Positions 3,008 through 54,390 of a DNA stretch of 64,000 nt are shown one piece after another. Each line of letters starts with the position of its first letter. The first letter of the stretch is position 1. The translations under genes were made by a program, and so were the position numbers. The notes under the pieces are model-generated. The model saw only the letters and a list, made by a program, of their open reading frames with translations. It was not told the origin of the DNA and ran no database searches. Origin of the DNA: Alphaproteobacteria bacterium (GTDB lineage: Bacteria > Pseudomonadota > Alphaproteobacteria > UBA8366 > CAVOAK01). Where the stretch lies: contig CBDCIT010000016.1 in the NCBI GenBank assembly GCA_965217615.1, forward strand, positions 229,272 to 293,271, written 5' to 3'.

Positions 3008-3097
3008 GGAGGGGTGGCCGAGTGGTTTAAGGCGCACGCCTGGAAAGCGTGTGGGGGTTAGCGCTCCTCGCGGGTTCGAATCCCGCTCCCTCCGCCA
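3008..3097 (+). tRNA. tRNA-Ser (anticodon GGA), long variable arm, encoded CCA
   Basis: Acceptor GGAGGGG/TCCCTCC, D-arm GCCGAGTGGTTTAAGGC, anticodon loop CT-GGA-AA, long variable arm, T-arm GCGGGTTCGAATCCCGC, discriminator G + CCA. Confidence 0.9.
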
Positions 3098-34297: not shown

Positions 34298-34374
34298 CGG
34301 AGTGTAGCTCAGCCTGGTAGAGCACTGTCTTCGGGAGGCAGGGGCCGGTGGTTCGAATCCACTCACTCCGACCA
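34298..34374 (+). tRNA. tRNA-Pro (anticodon CGG), encoded CCA
   Basis: Acceptor CGGAGTG/CACTCCG, D-arm GCTCAGCCTGGTAGAGC, anticodon stem-loop CTGTC-TTCGGGA-GGCAG, T-arm GGTGGTTCGAATCCACT, A + CCA. Confidence 0.9.
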
Positions 34375-41619: not shown

Positions 41620-41775
41620 GACACGTTCTCGGGGCGGGGTGAAAGTCCCCACCGGCGGTAAGAGCGACGGTCGCTCAAGCCCGCGAGCGCTCTTCGGGTG
41701 CATGCCTGAAGAGGACAGCAGATTCGGTGTGATTCCGAAGCCGACGGTGATAGTCCGGACGGGAGAGAACGAGAG
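41620..41775 (+). promoter_or_regulatory. FMN riboswitch (RFN element) upstream of ribH
   Basis: CGTTCTCGGGGCGGGGTGAAAGTCCCCACCGGCGGTAA…AGCCCGCGAGCG…CAGCAGATTCGGTGTGATTCCGAAGCCGACGGTGATAGTCCGGACGGGAGAGAACG matches the conserved RFN core. Confidence 0.9.
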
Positions 41776-48254: not shown

Positions 48255-48354
48255 TTAGCGCCAGCCACGTTCCTTGAAGAGGATCAAGGCTCCGCTGTGA
48301 AGCGGTGCGCCACTCCGCTGCTTAGCCATCGTTTCGGCGTCGAGTGCCGCAAAT
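48255..48354 (-). pseudogene. TAXI-family TRAP solute receptor, C-terminal piece (split by IS66-family element)
   Basis: Reads …(F)AALDAETMAKQRSGAPLHSGALILFKERGWR*. It joins in frame to 52666..53551 once the IS and one TSD copy are removed (978 nt = 326 codons). Confidence 0.85.
48347..48354. repeat. 8-bp target-site duplication CCGCAAAT (left) of the IS66-family element
   Basis: The same octamer lies at 52666..52673, directly outside the IRs. Confidence 0.9.
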
Positions 48355-48391
48355 GTAAAGGTTCGGTCGGGCCGGTATAGGTCGGTGGATT

Positions 48392-50155
48392 TTACCGATT
48401 GAGGGTTCGCTTCCAATCTCTTCGCAGGGGCCGAAGCCAGATGTCCTTCCTGGGCTTGTCGTAGAGCTTGTCCCGGTCGTAGCGTCCGCGTCCCTGGGTG
48501 GTCCCGACATGGATCCAGCCGGAGGCTCTGTAGACGGCTCCGGTGTAGCGGGGCGTCTCGACGAAAGTCTCGATGAGCACGGGCGTTGTGTTGTAGCGCT
48601 CGGTCCAGTCCTCGGGCAGGCGCCGGCGGATGATGGCGAGGATGTGCGAGCCCAGGTTGGGGATATTGATCCAGGGCAGGGTGCAGCGAGACTAGCTGCT
48701 GTACTTGCGGGTGAGAGTCCCGTCGGCGCAATTCTCAGTTTAGCGCCGTAGTGATATCCGGCAGGCATGCGGGGCGACCCGGTGGTCTGAAAGCCCGGAA
48801 GTAAAAGCCCCGGAGGGCCGGAGGGTCGTAGTGCCTCTCAGGTCTGGTCAGTTCGGTGGGGCGAGCGAACAGTAGGGCCGTAACGAAAGTGAACGGATTA
48901 AGCGTCGAAAATCATGTCCTGCATGAAGCTGATTTGCGGGGTAAACGGAGCTGCCAAGGGTTTCCTGCCTATCCGATGGCCAGTGCCGGTGCGGAAGAAC
49001 TGAGGCGCACGCATCGGGGCTCCCGGCGTATTGAAGGCGGCAATACTGGACAGTACAGCAGTGAAAGTCCGGAAGGTGTGGAGGTCAGACAGGATGATCC
49101 TTGGATGTCAAAGACCGTGTCTATAACTGGCTGTGCCGGGAAATGAGACGGAGATCTCCAGACTGGCGGATGAGGTCGTCAAGCGTTGATGGGCGGGACA
49201 ACATAACCCGGCTGGAGCGAGGACCTCAGGGCTCAGGTGGCAGTGCTGCTACCGTATGGTCCGCACACAGAGGCGGACGGTCTTCAAGGCGGTCGGCACG
49301 GTCTAAGGACGGAGCAAACGAGGGCTGTGGTCAGGAGAATGGCTGGGTCGACCTTAACCCTGACGCGTCCGCGGAAGGCTCCACTCCGAACTGTGAGGTG
49401 CCTGATGCTTGAAGCCGGACCGGGGAAAACCCGATGTCCGGAATTTTAGGGGGGGCGGCTGGAAACGTGGCCTATGGTGGAACTGTGAACCCACCCCGCA
49501 ACCGAAAGGGCGGGGCTGGAAACCCTCCACCTACCGGTGCGCGCGCCAGTGCCCTACCCGACATCAGGAACCGCGGGTTATCGACCATGAGGGGCAGGTT
49601 CTTCTCGCGTAGTTGCGGCGTCCACCCGATGAAGGTGTCGCGCGGTGCGAGCTTCCAGGCGGCGGTTGAGAAGCCGAGCATGGCGACGGGCCAGCCGTCG
49701 CGGTCGTGGACGGCGTAGCGCATCTGGGCGCCGACCAGGGTCCTGTAGCCGAGATAGTGGTAGCGGGCGATGAACTCGTTCCACAGCTTGCCCTCCCGGG
49801 TGCCGCGCACGACGGGCCGCAGGGTGAGCGGACGGACCTCGTCGAGGGTTGTCGGCGTCGGGAACAGCGGCGGTTCGGTGTCCGGTCCGAAGACGATGGG
49901 CTTGGGCCGGTTCTGCCGTCCCTGCTTCGGCGGCAGAACGATGAGGCCGTCGCGGTGCATATCGAGCATGGTGACCCTGGCCATCATGTCCTTGAGGCCG
50001 CCGTCGGGCTTGAACCAGCCGATGCGCCGGCAGAACGCCTTCGACAGGCGATGGCGGTTCAGCGCCGGAGGGCCGGCGATCAGGGCGCGCAGCAGCGCCA
50101 TCTCTTCGGCGGTGAAGTCGCGGCCGTAATAGCGGCACTCGACGGCGCCGGTCAT
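48392..50155 (-). pseudogene. DUF4338-domain gene, interrupted by an 882-nt insertion (exon-like parts 50155..49563 and 48680..48392)
   Basis: N-part: MTGAVECRYYGRDFTAEEM…NEFIARYHYLGYRTLVGAQMRYAV…WKLAPRDTFIGWTPQLREKNLPLMVDNPRFL. C-part: LPWINIPNLGSHILAIIRRRLPEDWTERYNTTPVLIETFVETPRYTGAVYRASGWIHVGTTQGRGRYD…. The parts sum to 882 nt (293 codons) in one frame. Confidence 0.85.
48681..49562 (+). mobile_element. ORF-less structured insertion, putative group II intron-like retroelement (antisense to DUF4338)
   Basis: No TSD. Starts GTGCAG and ends CCCTACCCGAC. GNRA-type loops occur only on the + strand. A D5-like hairpin lies at 49413..49441. A G7 tract (49449..49455) can pair with CCCUACCC (49552..49559), leaving A49556 bulged 7 nt from the 3' end. 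CCTGCC (48964..48969) complements the 6 nt (GGCAGG) preceding the insertion. See findings for caveats. Confidence 0.5.
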
Positions 50156-52578
50156 CCCGGCGCCGTCAGGGCGAGCCTGTGTTCCTCGTTCATCGACCAT
50201 GGCAGCCAAGGCGACAGGTCGTCCGGCGGTCGACGGCCATTCTTCGCGCATTCTTCCAGCCACGCTTCAAGCCAGCGCAGGACATCGATGCCGTTTAACG
50301 CGAGGGTGCCCACCACCGAGTACATCATGGCCGTGAACCGGGCGCCGGTCTCGCTGTCGGAGCCGAACGACAGGCGTCTTCCGATCGCTGGCCCTCTGAG
50401 CATCCTTTCGGCGAGATTGTTGTCCATCGGCACCAGCGGGCGGTCGACGAAGACGCTCAGCCCCTCGCGATGGTTGATGAGCGAGCGCAGGGCCTTGCCC
50501 TCGCGCGCCTCGTCGGGCAGGCCGGCGAGCTCCCGTTCGGCCTGCGCGAACAGGCCGTCGAGCGTCTCCTCCAGCGCGCCCTGTGCCGTGTCGAACGCCG
50601 ACGTCTGGCGCTCAAGCTCGGCGCCGTAATGCTCCAGCCGCGCCTCGTTCAGGCGGTAGATCGACGCGATCCGCTCGATCCATCCCCGGCACCATTCCGT
50701 CAGGCTGACCTGGCCGGCCGCGCACTCGATAAAATCGCGCCGTTGATGAGACCAACAGAACGCAAGGGTCACCAGCCCCCCGCGAAGGCGAGCGAGCCGC
50801 TTGTAGGCGCTATAGCGGTCGCAGACGATGACCGTGTGGAGGAGGGCCGCCGCGAACAGCTTCTCCGCCGCTTCGGCGCTGCGCGAAGGGTCGATATAGA
50901 AGTAGACGGCATCGCTGCTGACCGAGGTCCACAGCCAGGCGCGGCTCGACCGGTCTTCCCCGCGAAGCTCTTGCACGCGCCAGCTGGTTTCGTCCGCATG
51001 GCGCAGCGCCGCCTTGTCCTGGTGCGCGAGGATCGCCCCGGCGACTGGCTCGAACAGTGGCACGAAGCGGAGCATGCTGTCGGCGAGCGTCCCGGGAGAG
51101 ATCGGCAGCCCCCGGTCGGACAGCCACGCGGCGACCCGCTTGAGCGGGCGGTAGCAGGCATAGCGTTCGAACAGGACGCAGGCCCACACGCTGATTCCGT
51201 AGGGCGTGTTGCGGAACAACCGCGGCACCGGGGGCGCCGACACTTCGATCGGCGACGACGCGCAGCCGCAGGCCCGGCGCCAGCGCGGACGGCGGATCAC
51301 ACGCTTGTGGGCCTTGACGTCGATCTCGACGAGCGGGGAGATATCGGCGCCGATCGCCGCATAGGGCTTGCCGCAACAGGAGCACACACGCGCCTCCTTC
51401 GGCGGGTTGATCTCCTCCTCGCGCTCCTCGAGCCCGGGCCGTCGGGTACGGCCATGGCCTGGGGCGCCGCGCTGCTGGCCGCGCGGGCGTCCGGAGCGCG
51501 GCGTCTCCTGCTTCTCGCTCTTTCGGCCGAACAGCGCCTTCGACAGCACCGCCCCGGTCGCGCGAAGCCTGGCAAGCTGCGCTTCCAGCGTCTGGATCCG
51601 ATTCCACGACGCCTTCGCGCCCTTGCGCAGCCGGGCGTTCTCCCTGGACAGCGATTTGATCGTGGCCTTCTGGCACCGAGATCTCCGCAACGCCCTGCGC
51701 AGTTCGGCATCCGCAATGGACAGCGTCTTCGACAGCGTCTTCCTGACCGCTCGAAGCCCGGCAAGCTCGGACTCAAGCGCCTTTCTGATTGCACGAAGTT
51801 TGGCAGGCTGAACCTCCAGCGACGCTTGCCGCCTCTCCAACTTCCGCACGGTCCTGCGCAGCCGCGCCTTCAATTTGTCTTTTTGGGCCTCGGACACGTT
51901 CAGAGCAACGCGCAGCCGGTAGCCCTCGCCGGACAAGGATTTCACCGCGTCCTTCTGGTCGCGCAGTCGCCTCAGTTCCGCAACGAGACGAACGATCTCG
52001 CGGTTCTGCGATCCGATCGTCTGCTTGTGGGTTTCCGCGCCCTGCAAATCCTTGCGCAACTCACGGACCTCGTACTCCAGCAACCCGGCCTTCTCCGCCC
52101 GGGCCTGCGCCACCTTCAGAGCCTTGCGCAGCTGGTTTACCTCCGTGAGCGACACAACCGGGGGCTGCCTGGCGGCCTCGATGCGGGATTCCGAAGGCCG
52201 CTGCTCAAACCGCGTCACTTCCGCCTTCGATGATTGCGCGGCCTTCACCGCGCGACGCAGTTCCTTCACCTCGACGCGGGACGCCTCCAGCTTGCCCCGA
52301 CAGCTGTCGAGCTGCCACTTGAAAGAACCCGCCCGGGAACGAGCATCCACATCTGACCGGCGCAGCTCTTCACAGCGTGCTTCGGCCGCGTCCGCCCGCG
52401 CCCGTTCCCGCTCCGCACGGGCGTGCTGCCGCTCGTACAGCGAACGCCAGTCGCGCGGCTGCTGCTCCAGCACGGACGCAGGGAACGACCAACCTGCATC
52501 GTTACCATCGGCCTGCGTCAGCGCTACGCCAATATCTTCGTCGAGAACCGCCATGCGCTCGACGATAGCCCATGGCAA
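50152..52578 (-). CDS. IS66-family transposase with unusually long N-terminal coiled-coil region (808 aa)
   Basis: C-terminal ~470 aa have the canonical IS66 TnpC layout (CSCCGKPY zinc-ribbon region, …RHADETSWRV…, …CWSHQRRDF…, …PMDNNLAERMLR…). The N-terminal ~340 aa are Arg/Leu/Ala/Lys-rich heptad-like repeats. Confidence 0.9.
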   Translation of the reverse strand: MPWAIVERMAVLDEDIGVALTQADGNDAGWSFPASVLEQQPRDWRSLYERQHARAERERARADAAEARCEELRRSDVDARSRAGSFKWQLDSCRGKLEASRVEVKELRRAVKAAQSSKAEVTRFEQRPSESRIEAARQPPVVSLTEVNQLRKALKVAQARAEKAGLLEYEVRELRKDLQGAETHKQTIGSQNREIVRLVAELRRLRDQKDAVKSLSGEGYRLRVALNVSEAQKDKLKARLRRTVRKLERRQASLEVQPAKLRAIRKALESELAGLRAVRKTLSKTLSIADAELRRALRRSRCQKATIKSLSRENARLRKGAKASWNRIQTLEAQLARLRATGAVLSKALFGRKSEKQETPRSGRPRGQQRGAPGHGRTRRPGLEEREEEINPPKEARVCSCCGKPYAAIGADISPLVEIDVKAHKRVIRRPRWRRACGCASSPIEVSAPPVPRLFRNTPYGISVWACVLFERYACYRPLKRVAAWLSDRGLPISPGTLADSMLRFVPLFEPVAGAILAHQDKAALRHADETSWRVQELRGEDRSSRAWLWTSVSSDAVYFYIDPSRSAEAAEKLFAAALLHTVIVCDRYSAYKRLARLRGGLVTLAFCWSHQRRDFIECAAGQVSLTEWCRGWIERIASIYRLNEARLEHYGAELERQTSAFDTAQGALEETLDGLFAQAERELAGLPDEAREGKALRSLINHREGLSVFVDRPLVPMDNNLAERMLRGPAIGRRLSFGSDSETGARFTAMMYSVVGTLALNGIDVLRWLEAWLEECAKNGRRPPDDLSPWLPWSMNEEHRLALTAPG

Positions 52579-52665
52579 AACGCGTTACCAGCCCAATTTT
52601 AGAGTTCATCCCGACATGGATGATGAGCCCAACGTCGGCCTATACCGGCCCGACCGAACCTTTAC

Positions 52666-52673
52666 CCGCAAAT
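52666..52673. repeat. 8-bp target-site duplication CCGCAAAT (right) of the IS66-family element
   Basis: Identical to 48347..48354. Confidence 0.9.
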
Positions 52674-53551
52674 ACCCTGTGCTGCGCACGCAGTGCATCG
52701 AGATCTCCGAAAACCGAGCGCACCAGATAGTTGACGACTGTCGCTTTAACCCGCTCGTTCGTCACCAGAACTGCCCTCAGACCGAAGCTCTTCATAGCCG
52801 CAGGGCTGTTGACGTAGTAGCCGCTGGGAATTGTGATCGGCGAAAGATCGCTCCGGCCCTTCAGCAGTATGTTAATCGCTCGTTGATCCACCGGAATTAC
52901 GCCCGCGCCACAGCGAGACGAAATTTCCGCGATGCGCGGCGAGGGGTGCGCCGCAACCAGCGTGATGACATCTACTCTACCGTCGCACAGCGCCGCCATC
53001 TGCTCGGAATCGGGTAACTCCAACATCTTGGCGATGTCATCGTGCGCCGTATTCTGTGCCTGCAACAGCCAATCGGTCAGCAATCGCTGATACGTGCCGC
53101 GTGGCCCTATGTTGACGCGCAATCTAGCGAGCGCAACGGAACTTCGGATACTGGAGGCCTGAGTCGCCAAAATCGTCAGAGCCTCTCCGTGCATGGAAAA
53201 TATCGTGCGCAAGTCCTCATCGGCTCCCTCTTCTCTGAAGGGTCCGGTCCCGAGCGCTGCTTGTCGCACCCAATCCGACTGCACGATCGCGAAATCGATT
53301 GCACCGTTGCGAAGTGCCCGTAGATTGGCAAAAGAGTCGGCATTGCTTTCTACATAGCACCGCGTCGTGGCGCTCTGGCGGTTGAACAACTCGCAAAGCG
53401 CGCCCGCGGCGGGAAAGTAGAGGCCCGATACCCGTCCGCCACCGATTATGGTGTAGTCGACGCCCAGATTTGCTGATTCCTGGGCAGAAACGTGTGTAAG
53501 ACACACGATAGTCGTCGCAAATGCGACCGCCAGATATTTGAGTAGGCTCAT
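52666..53551 (-). pseudogene. TAXI-family TRAP solute receptor, N-terminal piece
   Basis: MSLLKYLAVAFATTIVCLTHVSAQE (signal peptide) …GGGRVSGLYFPAAGALCEL…ANLRALRNGAIDFAIVQSD…. The reading frame runs into the IS IR after …AQHRVFA. Confidence 0.85.
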
Positions 53552-54390
53552 TGCCGGCCCAAAAGTGAACGCGCTGCATTCGCGTCGGCAATCGGCCGGC
53601 ACATCAATGCAGCACCATCTCGAACCTGGGCGACAAGCGCCGCGTTATTGGGCGCCACGCTTCCGTCCGCGAGATGAAGATTGTTTTCGAACCCTACTCT
53701 GCAATGACCGTCGAGCGCAGCGGCCGAAAGGGCGCATCGCGCCTCCTGCGCGCCAAAGGCACACATCGACCACTCCAAGGGCAATCCGTCGCTGGCGTGC
53801 AGGAACGGCAGCAAGTCTCTGGGCGAAGACTGCTGGTCCTTGGTATAGCGACCGAGAACGAAGAGCACGAACGGGTGCTCGTCCGGGACGACGCCACGGT
53901 CCCGCAGCGAGATAAACTGTTCGACCTCCGCCGCTGAGAACATGATGAATTGTGGCATAATCCGCTCCGCAGCGACCCATGCTAGGAAATCCGCTACCAC
54001 ATGCTCCTTGCACCCAGGGGGGCAAATCTCTCGTATCGCCAACGAGACTGCTTCGGGCTTCACCGCACGCACCATTGCCATCTGCTCTTCAGGCTCGTAG
54101 ATGCCAACAGCTTCGCTGGTTATCTGGACGATGATGCGTTCGCCGACCTCGGCCCGAACCGCAGCAATAGCGGCTTTGTAGGCGTCGGCGTCAAGCGTGT
54201 GGCCCCCCGCCGCATCGCGCACATGAAGGTGGATCATGGCAGCGCCCCTCTCAACACAAGACGCTGCTTCGGCCGCGAGTTCTTGTGGCCCGATCGGAAG
54301 CGCTGCGTGATCTGCCTTTGTTTTCTTCGCACCGTTGGGGGCAACGGCGATCACAAGTGGTGGTGGATCTTTCGGGTGCGTCGTGTTCAT
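53548..54390 (-). CDS. BKACE-family (3-keto-5-aminohexanoate cleavage enzyme-like, DUF849) protein
   Basis: …VIAVAPNGAKKTKADHAALP…EAASCVERGAAMIHLHVRD…GHCRVGFENN…. The stop overlaps the TAXI start by 4 nt. Confidence 0.8.
   Translation of the reverse strand: MNTTHPKDPPPLVIAVAPNGAKKTKADHAALPIGPQELAAEAASCVERGAAMIHLHVRDAAGGHTLDADAYKAAIAAVRAEVGERIIVQITSEAVGIYEPEEQMAMVRAVKPEAVSLAIREICPPGCKEHVVADFLAWVAAERIMPQFIMFSAAEVEQFISLRDRGVVPDEHPFVLFVLGRYTKDQQSSPRDLLPFLHASDGLPLEWSMCAFGAQEARCALSAAALDGHCRVGFENNLHLADGSVAPNNAALVAQVRDGAALMCRPIADANAARSLLGRQ

Follow-up and report, generated by a model that had tools for sequence, protein, structure and literature searches.

Insertion sequences (ISs) of the IS66 family, represented by IS66, ISCro1 and IS679, carry three genes in the order tnpA-tnpB-tnpC, are bounded by inverted repeats that start with GTAA and make 8-bp target duplications. 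The ISBst12 group of the same family consists of elements with a single open reading frame (ORF) that encode TnpC only. Here we describe an element at positions 48355-52665 of a 64,000-nucleotide stretch of DNA (the window) on contig CBDCIT010000016.1 of an Alphaproteobacteria bacterium (assembly GCA_965217615.1). It resembles the three-gene elements in its DDE_Tnp_IS66 domain, its CxxC...CxC zinc finger, an LFGRKSE motif that follows a leucine zipper, and its repeats and duplication. In contrast to them, it has no tnpA or tnpB and carries an unrelated second gene, encoding a DUF4338 (DruA-like) protein, downstream of the transposase. The lack of tnpA and tnpB is shared with the ISBst12 group; however, as that group is described, the window element is not a single-ORF element, since it has an obligatory second gene of 293 amino acids (aa) and a much larger transposase. 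The results lead us to consider it probable, with moderate confidence, that the element belongs to a recently active, multi-copy lineage of two-gene IS66 elements in which the DUF4338 protein is a dedicated cofactor or regulator of transposition and not cargo. The features of the element are as follows.

48347-48354, no strand: target-site duplication, first copy, CCGCAAAT (read from the sequence)
48355-48384, plus strand: terminal inverted repeat at the DUF4338-proximal end, GTAAAGGTTCGGTCGGGCCGGTATAGG... (repeat search)
48392-48680, minus strand: 3' part of the DUF4338 (DruA-like) gene, codons 198-293 and stop (translation, join and Pfam)
48681-49562, plus strand: ORF-less group II intron of 882 nt, GTGCAG...CCCGAC, antisense to the DUF4338 gene (Rfam RF02003)
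49563-50155, minus strand: 5' part of the DUF4338 (DruA-like) gene, with the N-terminal helical domain, linker and first GNAT-like half (Pfam)
50152-50155, minus strand: ATGA stop/start overlap of the transposase and DUF4338 genes (seen in the sequence)
50152-52578, minus strand: IS66-family transposase, 808 aa from a TTG start (ORF with Pfam and NCBIfam matches)
50251-51471, minus strand: conserved IS66 core of the transposase, CxxC...CxC zinc-finger region and DDE domain (NF033517 and family alignment)
51535-52578, minus strand: N-terminal helical arm of the transposase, residues 1 to ~348, with reiterated R/K/L/A-rich modules (DNA repeats, alignment and structural model)
52636-52665, minus strand: terminal inverted repeat at the transposase-proximal end (repeat search)
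52666-52673, no strand: target-site duplication, second copy, CCGCAAAT (read from the sequence)

The segment 48355-52665 (4311 bp) is an IS66-family element and a recent, genuine insertion. Its two 30-nt terminal repeats are 97% complementary, and the first 27 nt (GTAAAGGTTCGGTCGGGCCGGTATAGG) are exact. Two exact 27-mers were found in the window against none expected (a shuffled sequence gave no match), and no third copy of the 27-nt repeat was found within the window. The repeats start with 5'-GTAA (GTAAAGGTTCGG..., 27/27 exact) as IS66 ends do, the same terminal repeat bounds five further copies (L001-L005), and the repeats of relatives are likewise of the GTAA type (GTAAGCGTTCG..., GTAATGGTTCGG... 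and similar). The 8-bp length of the CCGCAAAT duplication is also that of the family. The element sits in the 3' end of a TAXI/TRAP-receptor-like ORF (52640-53602 on the minus strand, and 48255-48354), and deletion in silico of the element and one copy of the duplication rebuilds the C-terminus of the receptor, ...FAALDAETMAKQRSGAPLHSGALILFKERGWR and stop. The flanking octamers and the restoration of the host ORF at the reconstructed empty site thus identify a recent insertion with an 8-bp duplication. Only 87 bp precede the transposase start and 7 bp follow the DUF4338 stop, leaving no space for tnpA or tnpB, and no ORF for either was found between the repeats. The IS66-type ends (GTAA, 27-bp repeats, 8-bp duplication) and the content of just two genes that a preliminary description had read from this DNA are therefore both correct.

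Membership in the IS66 family also follows from the homology of the transposase to TnpC. Pfam DDE_Tnp_IS66 (PF03050) matches residues 460-747 (E 4e-54, 184 bits against a cut-off of 23.1) and NCBIfam transpos_IS66 (NF033517) matches residues 370-776 (272.6 bits, cut-off 180). A database twin (P0001) is 100% identical and starts at the ATG at 52554, so that the 808 aa claimed previously hold for the TTG start, and 800 aa for the ATG start used in database twins. In the family alignment (800-aa numbering) C391, C394, C429, C431, D521 and E716 are invariant and D579 is nearly so. Identity to TnpC of the ISCro1 type is ~26%, and the helical region is ~270 aa longer than in the three-gene elements.

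The DUF4338 gene overlaps the transposase gene by the ATGA at 50152-50155, as had been noted before, and the overlap is general: 74 of 74 intact gene pairs of related loci overlap by 4 nt (ATGA in 65, GTGA in 9), and the length of the DUF4338 protein is constant at 293 aa across all of them. Overlapping accessory genes held in fixed ratio to the transposase are likewise found in IS21 (IstA/IstB), IS66 (TnpA/B/C) and Tn7 (TnsA/B/C); unlike those accessories, which include AAA+ ATPases and small helix-turn-helix (HTH) proteins, DUF4338 would combine an HTH-like with a GNAT-like domain and occurs with at least five DDE families.

In the window copy the gene is not intact but split by an 882-nt insertion, a point absent from the preliminary description. 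The frame breaks after ...VDNPRFL and resumes ~880 bp on as LPWINIPNLGSH.... The 5' fragment alone matches Pfam DruA (E 2e-17), and the 3' fragment matches as well. Exact excision of 48681-49562 gives a 293-aa ORF reading ...NPRFLILPWINIPNLGSH... (NPRFLILPW), which matches Pfam PF14236 with E 1.3e-38 and 133 bits and has intact 293-aa homologues (P0121-P0240). The intron-free element measures 3429 bp, and an intact copy on a different contig (L001, flanked by the duplication CAGTTTTG) matches it at 100% identity. A further IS copy, located elsewhere, has an identical (100%) intron at this very site (L002, 8993-9874; duplication GCCGACAG). Transposition of the disrupted IS and two homing events of the intron would each account for this, since the copies show 100% identity throughout. 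The intron cannot be spliced from the DUF4338 mRNA, because it is inserted antisense. An ORF-less group II intron would thus have homed antisense into the DUF4338 gene and inactivated it in the window copy, and intact sister copies could provide the protein in trans.

The linkage of the two genes was sampled from both sides. Scanning genomes with the joined DUF4338 protein gave 463 relatives, of which the 79 best loci were taken; they come from metagenome-assembled genomes (MAGs) of Alphaproteobacteria, Gammaproteobacteria (Azotimanducaceae, Rariloculaceae) and Bryobacterales, and the scan gave at least 10 copies in some genomes. At the 82 loci inspected, an IS66-type transposase gene lies directly upstream of every intact DUF4338 gene (~80). 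From the transposase side, a DruA-family gene lies directly downstream at 16 of 16 insertion sites (sampled with P0065 and P0057). The co-occurrence of DUF4338 and IS66 transposases, proposed earlier as a point to check, is therefore complete at ~80 intact genes in 82 loci and at 16/16 transposase sites. Furthermore, the search for other copies, also proposed there, found intact two-gene copies. Both genes lie within GTAA-type repeats, flanked by perfect 8-bp duplications, in more than 20 independent insertions, and these insertions span sub-lineages whose transposases are 49.5-68% identical to that of the window. Fortuitous capture, for which a DUF4338 gene lying outside the repeats in other copies would have spoken, was rejected on this evidence; the gene lies inside them in all of these insertions.

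Divergence was compared across 34 distinct elements, with the ratio of nonsynonymous to synonymous substitution (dN/dS) calculated by the Nei-Gojobori method; the values are medians.

DUF4338: pairwise identity 84.6%, dN/dS 0.23
Transposase catalytic core: pairwise identity 70.5%, dN/dS 0.40
Transposase arm: pairwise identity 48%, dN/dS 0.72

DUF4338 is the more conserved protein in 358 of 358 divergent pairs. By these sequence comparisons, the accessory gene is the most strongly selected part of the element. As the slowest-evolving and most strongly selected part, it does not behave as a dispensable passenger, and the label of passenger given to it in the preliminary description does not fit a component that is the most conserved and obligately linked to the transposase. 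The dedicated role suggested there gains support from linkage, coupling and conservation; what that role would be is inferred below.

The interrupted gene in the window copy might be taken to mean that the element is a decayed relic whose gene arrangement has no significance. The window copy is 100% identical to the other copy that bears the intron and, once the intron is taken out, to one that is intact; the duplications are perfect, and many intact ORF pairs are under purifying selection. Copy identity, intact pairs and dN/dS contradict decay, which is scarcely credible and was rejected.

Copies of the lineage often stand in tandem or are nested (L002 750-12048, L003 5890-13063, L017, L043, L044, L062, L063 and L074), and the copy of L002 that carries the intron sits within another copy's transposase gene. 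The pattern points to an insertion preference for the element's own sequence, or simply to very high copy numbers.

The partnership of DUF4338 with transposases extends beyond this lineage. When a plasmid collection was searched with the transposase, only canonical IS66 elements at ~26% identity were found and no close relative; the DUF4338 query gave only two Thiodictyon records, which led to a link with Tn5 and ISAs1. The Thiodictyon plasmid homologue, 40% identical, represents a second, equally conserved DUF4338 subfamily of 293-298 aa. In this subfamily the last 4 nt of the DUF4338 gene double as the first 4 nt of a Tn5/IS50-type transposase gene (Tnp_DNA_bind, DDE_Tnp_1, Dimer_Tnp_Tn5), and the pair is enclosed by Tn5-like CTGACTATTAACC... 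ends (CTGACTA...). No target duplications were visible for this type on the short metagenomic contigs, where the repeats possibly cause assembly joins. A profile-based metagenome scan added 80 DUF4338 loci at 38-52% identity. An adjacent DDE transposase gene on the same strand was present in 55 of them; the other 25 are mostly contigs too short to judge, or overlaps missed by the adjacency rule. The partners in the 55 loci are as follows.

IS66, order DUF4338 then transposase: 30 loci
IS66, order transposase then DUF4338: 12 loci
IS66, fusion: 1 locus
DDE_5: 4 loci
DDE_Tnp_1: 4 loci
Tn5 type, one a fusion: 2 loci
ISAs1 type: 1 locus
IS630 type: 1 locus

Inverted repeats surround DUF4338 and transposase in L126 (DDE_Tnp_1 type, perfect 23 bp) and L155 (reverse-order IS66, GTAATAG...). 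The repeat search at loci of the reverse-order IS66 and DDE_5 types was mostly unconvincing; L155, L126 and L138 gave repeats.

An exhaustive profile search returned 12,248 cluster representatives at 50% identity, 7,400 of them at E<=1e-10, and among the best 150 representatives ~20 are fusion proteins. Pfam confirmed fusions of DruA with a Tn5 transposase (five clusters tested), of an IS66 transposase with DruA (two clusters), of DruA with an IS630-type transposase and of DruA with DDE_Tnp_1. The junction of a DruA-ISAs1 fusion is conserved at 77% identity in two independent sources, which argues that the fusions are not sequencing artefacts, and in the Tn5 fusion of L157 the two parts are joined by a linker of ~50 aa. 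By the 'Rosetta stone' argument, such fusions assign the DUF4338 module and the transposase to one functional unit. Taken together, the gene pairs and fusions make DUF4338 look like a general transposase partner, used by at least five DDE families (IS66, Tn5/IS50, IS4/IS5-like, DDE_5, ISAs1 and IS630).

Several of these loci show further arrangements. Two proteins annotated 'ISAs1 family transposase' (L084 4956-6290; L085 2856-4076, minus strand) have an N-terminal DUF4338 core without the helical domain. On the Thiodictyon plasmid pTs485 (L083 5369-11354), a DUF2235 gene is split by an IS with DUF4338 and an IS4/Tn5-type transposase, and this IS is itself split by an integrase and an IS91 element; its DUF4338 gene has only the PGAP label 'DUF4338 domain-containing protein'. 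Additionally, P0516 (560 aa) fuses the DUF4338 module to MORN repeats with no transposase, an architecture outside the transposon context.

The best-known relative of the protein is DruA of type I Druantia, with which the preliminary description had associated it. Both belong to PF14236/DUF4338 and may have the same GNAT-like core; the IS protein differs in its 293-aa length and in residing in an IS rather than in a druABCDE operon (DruE being a DUF1998 helicase). The PADLOC DruA model (PDLC00002, 407 positions) gave 21 bits and E 3.8e-5 over residues 140-235 only. No druB-E gene was found beside any copy, in the window or at any fetched locus, the neighbours being the transposase gene and unrelated host genes. 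Since the PADLOC match is weak and DruB-E are not nearby, we conclude from sequence comparison that the IS protein is a distant paralogue of DruA and not a member of a Druantia system; the association thus holds for the family and not for the system.

This relationship nevertheless allows for the DUF4338 gene being host-beneficial cargo, for instance a stand-alone defence or anti-defence module akin to DruA, which the IS would spread. A target in the host or in phages could explain why it is so highly conserved regardless of the transposase, and the IS-rich MAG contexts do hold defence genes (at L001, BrxR/WYL and a type I restriction subunit). Such genes normally come and go, whereas the linkage here is complete whichever of the two genes is sampled; all 74 pairs have the obligatory overlap with the transposase, fusions join the DUF4338 module to transposases from four or five families, single genomes hold at least 10 copies, and the Druantia partners and a strong DruA match are both missing. 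We therefore regard cargo as quite unlikely.

A structural model gives some indication of what the protein may do. The AlphaFold2 (AF2) model (pLDDT 68, a predicted score for the local distance difference test; predicted template modelling score, pTM, 0.55) has an N-terminal beta-beta-alpha-alpha-alpha domain (residues 1-68), which is modelled with the highest confidence (pLDDT 75-90), a linker that is disordered, and a core of GNAT topology, the order of elements in that fold being beta-alpha-alpha-beta-beta-beta-alpha-beta-alpha-beta. The top 50 Foldseek matches in the PDB are all GNATs (SpeG, YhbS, PAT; probability 0.9-0.99, TM-score to target 0.4-0.54), and those among the viral models of BFVD are GNATs as well. 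A sequence search of the PDB with the family profile gave nothing relevant. The assignment agrees with that of Aravind and colleagues, who placed DUF4338 among the GNATs (PMC10853773). The modelled protein is thus an N-terminal helical (HTH-like) domain joined to a domain of the GNAT-like acyltransferase fold. Twelve polar residues of the core are invariant (W125, N126, R131, H133, Q144, R146, Y147, R172, D173, E235, R242 and Y248).

Small HTH regulators are encoded by many IS families, such as IS1 and IS3. The frequency of such regulators, the confidently modelled helical domain and an acetyl-CoA loop that is only partly conserved would all suit a DUF4338 protein that is a non-catalytic, DNA-binding regulator of the OrfA/InsA kind, with its GNAT-like domain degenerated to a ligand sensor or dimerization module. 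A repressor, however, needs IS-specific DNA, and this protein stays ~85% identical while repeats and transposases diverge, and serves unrelated families. Moreover, the many invariant polar residues of the core suggest an active or binding site rather than a decayed domain, and stoichiometric fusion to a transposase would be unusual for a repressor. A regulator of this type is therefore unlikely, in our judgement.

The GNAT-type toxins TacT and AtaT acetylate aminoacyl-tRNA, and both the GNAT-like fold and the tight expression of the gene from a mobile element could fit a toxin or addiction factor that stabilizes the IS or halts growth while transposition takes place. Within its 3429 bp, though, the element has no room for a partner gene of antitoxin size, at least 10 intact copies per genome are tolerated, and a transposase fusion is unlike a diffusible toxin. 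A toxin is very improbable on these grounds and was rejected.

Mom of phage Mu is a GNAT-fold enzyme of a transposable phage that modifies DNA adenine. The DUF4338 family resembles it weakly (of 34 members, 16 have a weak match to Pfam Mom, the best at E 3e-4). Both proteins have a G-x-x-Y-x-A-[SA]-N-[WF]-x-x-[VI]-G motif and belong to elements that transpose by a DDE enzyme. On the other hand, the window element has no Com-like regulator, and DNA modification by DUF4338 is purely hypothetical. We treat the Mom connection, drawn from these sequence similarities, as a lead.

Based on these results, we propose the following mechanism for the two-gene element. The DDE transposase would cut and join at the GTAA-type repeats of 27-30 bp, making 8-bp duplications. 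DUF4338 would be translated by termination-reinitiation at the ATGA and so be made in cis, co-ordinately with the transposase. It would then act beside the transposase at the DNA, functionally replacing TnpA/TnpB. The N-terminal domain would bind DNA and the GNAT-like domain would use acyl-CoA to modify a macromolecule; candidate targets are a lysine residue, either in the transposase or in a nucleoid protein, and the bases of DNA, as in the case of phage Mu Mom. Such acyl-CoA-dependent modification would switch transposition on or off. Because DUF4338 serves different transposases and evolves more slowly than they do, a substrate common to all hosts and elements is favoured over a bespoke protein interface, and as that substrate we favour DNA, acyl-CoA or a conserved protein of the nucleoid or replisome.

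Several points weigh against the role proposed for DUF4338 as a dedicated cofactor or modifier. Any activity of the protein is a prediction from sequence and fold. The quality of the GNAT model is moderate (pTM 0.55), which limits the certainty of the fold, and no Pfam acetyltransferase family matches DUF4338 by sequence. The acetyl-CoA pyrophosphate loop that follows beta-4, Q/RxxGxG/A in its canonical form, is partly kept, as ...LPW[IV]x[IV]xNL[GA]S with the last G/A only, and the domain is perhaps non-catalytic. The similarity to Mom lies below the Pfam threshold, and a comparison with Mu Mom by hhalign, which aligned a 17-column motif, was not significant. Use of one protein by structurally different transposases argues against a specific interface and fits a host- or DNA-directed, possibly cargo-like role. 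The intron-disrupted copy stands at two sites, so DUF4338 is maybe dispensable in cis, although repeated homing of the intron accounts for this too. Finally, the lineage may already carry a name in ISfinder or TnPedia, which lie outside the sources searched.

We also put forward, tentatively, a wider proposal. DUF4338/DruA-like proteins may be an exchangeable cofactor of transposition that is not tied to one family, modifies DNA or protein in an acyl-CoA-dependent manner, and was repeatedly recruited by, or fused to, transposases of at least five DDE families. DruA of type I Druantia would then have been exapted from this transposon module, or share an origin with it, and most of the ~12,000 clusters would be transposon genes rather than defence genes.

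The second unusual feature of the element is the N-terminal arm of the transposase. The ALFGRKSEK motif is preceded by ~340 aa, whereas the corresponding LIFGPRTE of a canonical TnpC (561 aa, from Thiodictyon) stands at about residue 66. Because the canonical motif already lies that far in, the true extension is ~270 aa. The coiled-coil extension of ~340 aa claimed in the preliminary description is thus real as a helical repeat arm that reaches beyond the TnpC zipper, and overstated in its excess length. The arm consists of reiterated modules of ~45 aa (...LRRALRRSRRQKATIKSLSRENARLRK...), which match three families of direct DNA repeats (D1-D3) and which the family alignment shows to be gained or lost whole; across the family its length is 255-423 aa. 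An AF2 model of the whole transposase (pLDDT 54, pTM 0.27), used solely for the secondary structure of the arm, has four very long helices at low confidence (36-117, 136-245, 251-311 and 317-342). Profile matches of the arm were weak and to coiled-coil families only.

Long-armed transposases (716-906 aa) are common inside the clade, and the searchable literature, ISfinder lying outside the search, held no such arm for a named IS66 subgroup. IS66-type transposases beside more distant DUF4338 genes are of normal size (~490-670 aa). Since DUF4338-linked transposases elsewhere are normal-sized, the arm and DUF4338 are separable, and the arm is not required for the partnership. Judged from the alignment, the arm is a clade-specific, fast-evolving and length-variable elaboration of the IS66 leucine zipper; it is probably a multimerization or spacing stalk. 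At its tip, the peptide MAVLDEDFG...PRDWRS (transposase residues 1-35) is conserved clade-wide, with D5, P25 and R34 invariant; this peptide may be a docking motif.

The intron of the window copy was identified by the Rfam model group-II-D1D4-4 (RF02003), which matches at 48705-48888 over the full model length with 64.2 bits against a gathering score of 49. It interrupts the most conserved DUF4338 codons, between NPRFL, I and LPW. No reverse transcriptase (RT) ORF is present within the 882 nt, and the Rfam model of domains V and VI (RF00029) gave no match in the intron even at E<=10. Folding gave a domain V-like hairpin of 6+4 bp with a 2-nt bulge and a long domain VI-like stem whose bulged A lies at position -7, counted from the intron's 3' end. 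Domain VI apparently contains ~80 nt of inserted sequence, which folds into a stable stem-loop (GTGGAACTGTGAACCCACCCCGC...GGGGCTGGAAACCCTCCAC). L178 (408-2500) holds a related group II intron that is full-length, belongs to the same Rfam class and encodes an RT/maturase (RVT_1 and GIIM). It is sense-oriented and sits in a related IS copy, after the left repeat and before the start of the transposase gene. Given this intron in addition to the one in DUF4338, the IS lineage is a recurrent home of group II introns, at two or more different sites. Elsewhere in the window, unrelated to the element, are a flavin mononucleotide (FMN) riboswitch (41621-41774, plus strand, 114 bits) and two tRNA genes (3008-3094 and 34298-34371, plus strand).

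In the searchable literature we found no work linking DUF4338, PF14236 or DruA with IS66 or with transposases; papers that mention PF14236/DUF4338 are not about transposons, and a preprint on YprA and Druantia has nothing specific on DruA. We rate the DUF4338-transposase partnership across families as a more novel result than the element itself, and as one that lends itself better to testing.

The accessory proteins of IS66 elements are mechanistically obscure, and in this lineage TnpA and TnpB are replaced by an unrelated and more conserved protein. The service of DUF4338 to Tn5-like, IS4/IS5-like, DDE_5, ISAs1 and IS630 transposases, to which it is often fused, points to an undescribed general requirement or control step of DDE transposition. 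The findings also bear on defence, as DruA is an uncharacterized component of type I Druantia. If the closest and most numerous relatives of DruA are indeed transposase partners, this would hint at the target that DruA senses or modifies and at a transposon origin for it. For annotation, labels of 'Druantia protein DruA' placed on PF14236 matches will miscall thousands of IS genes as defence genes.

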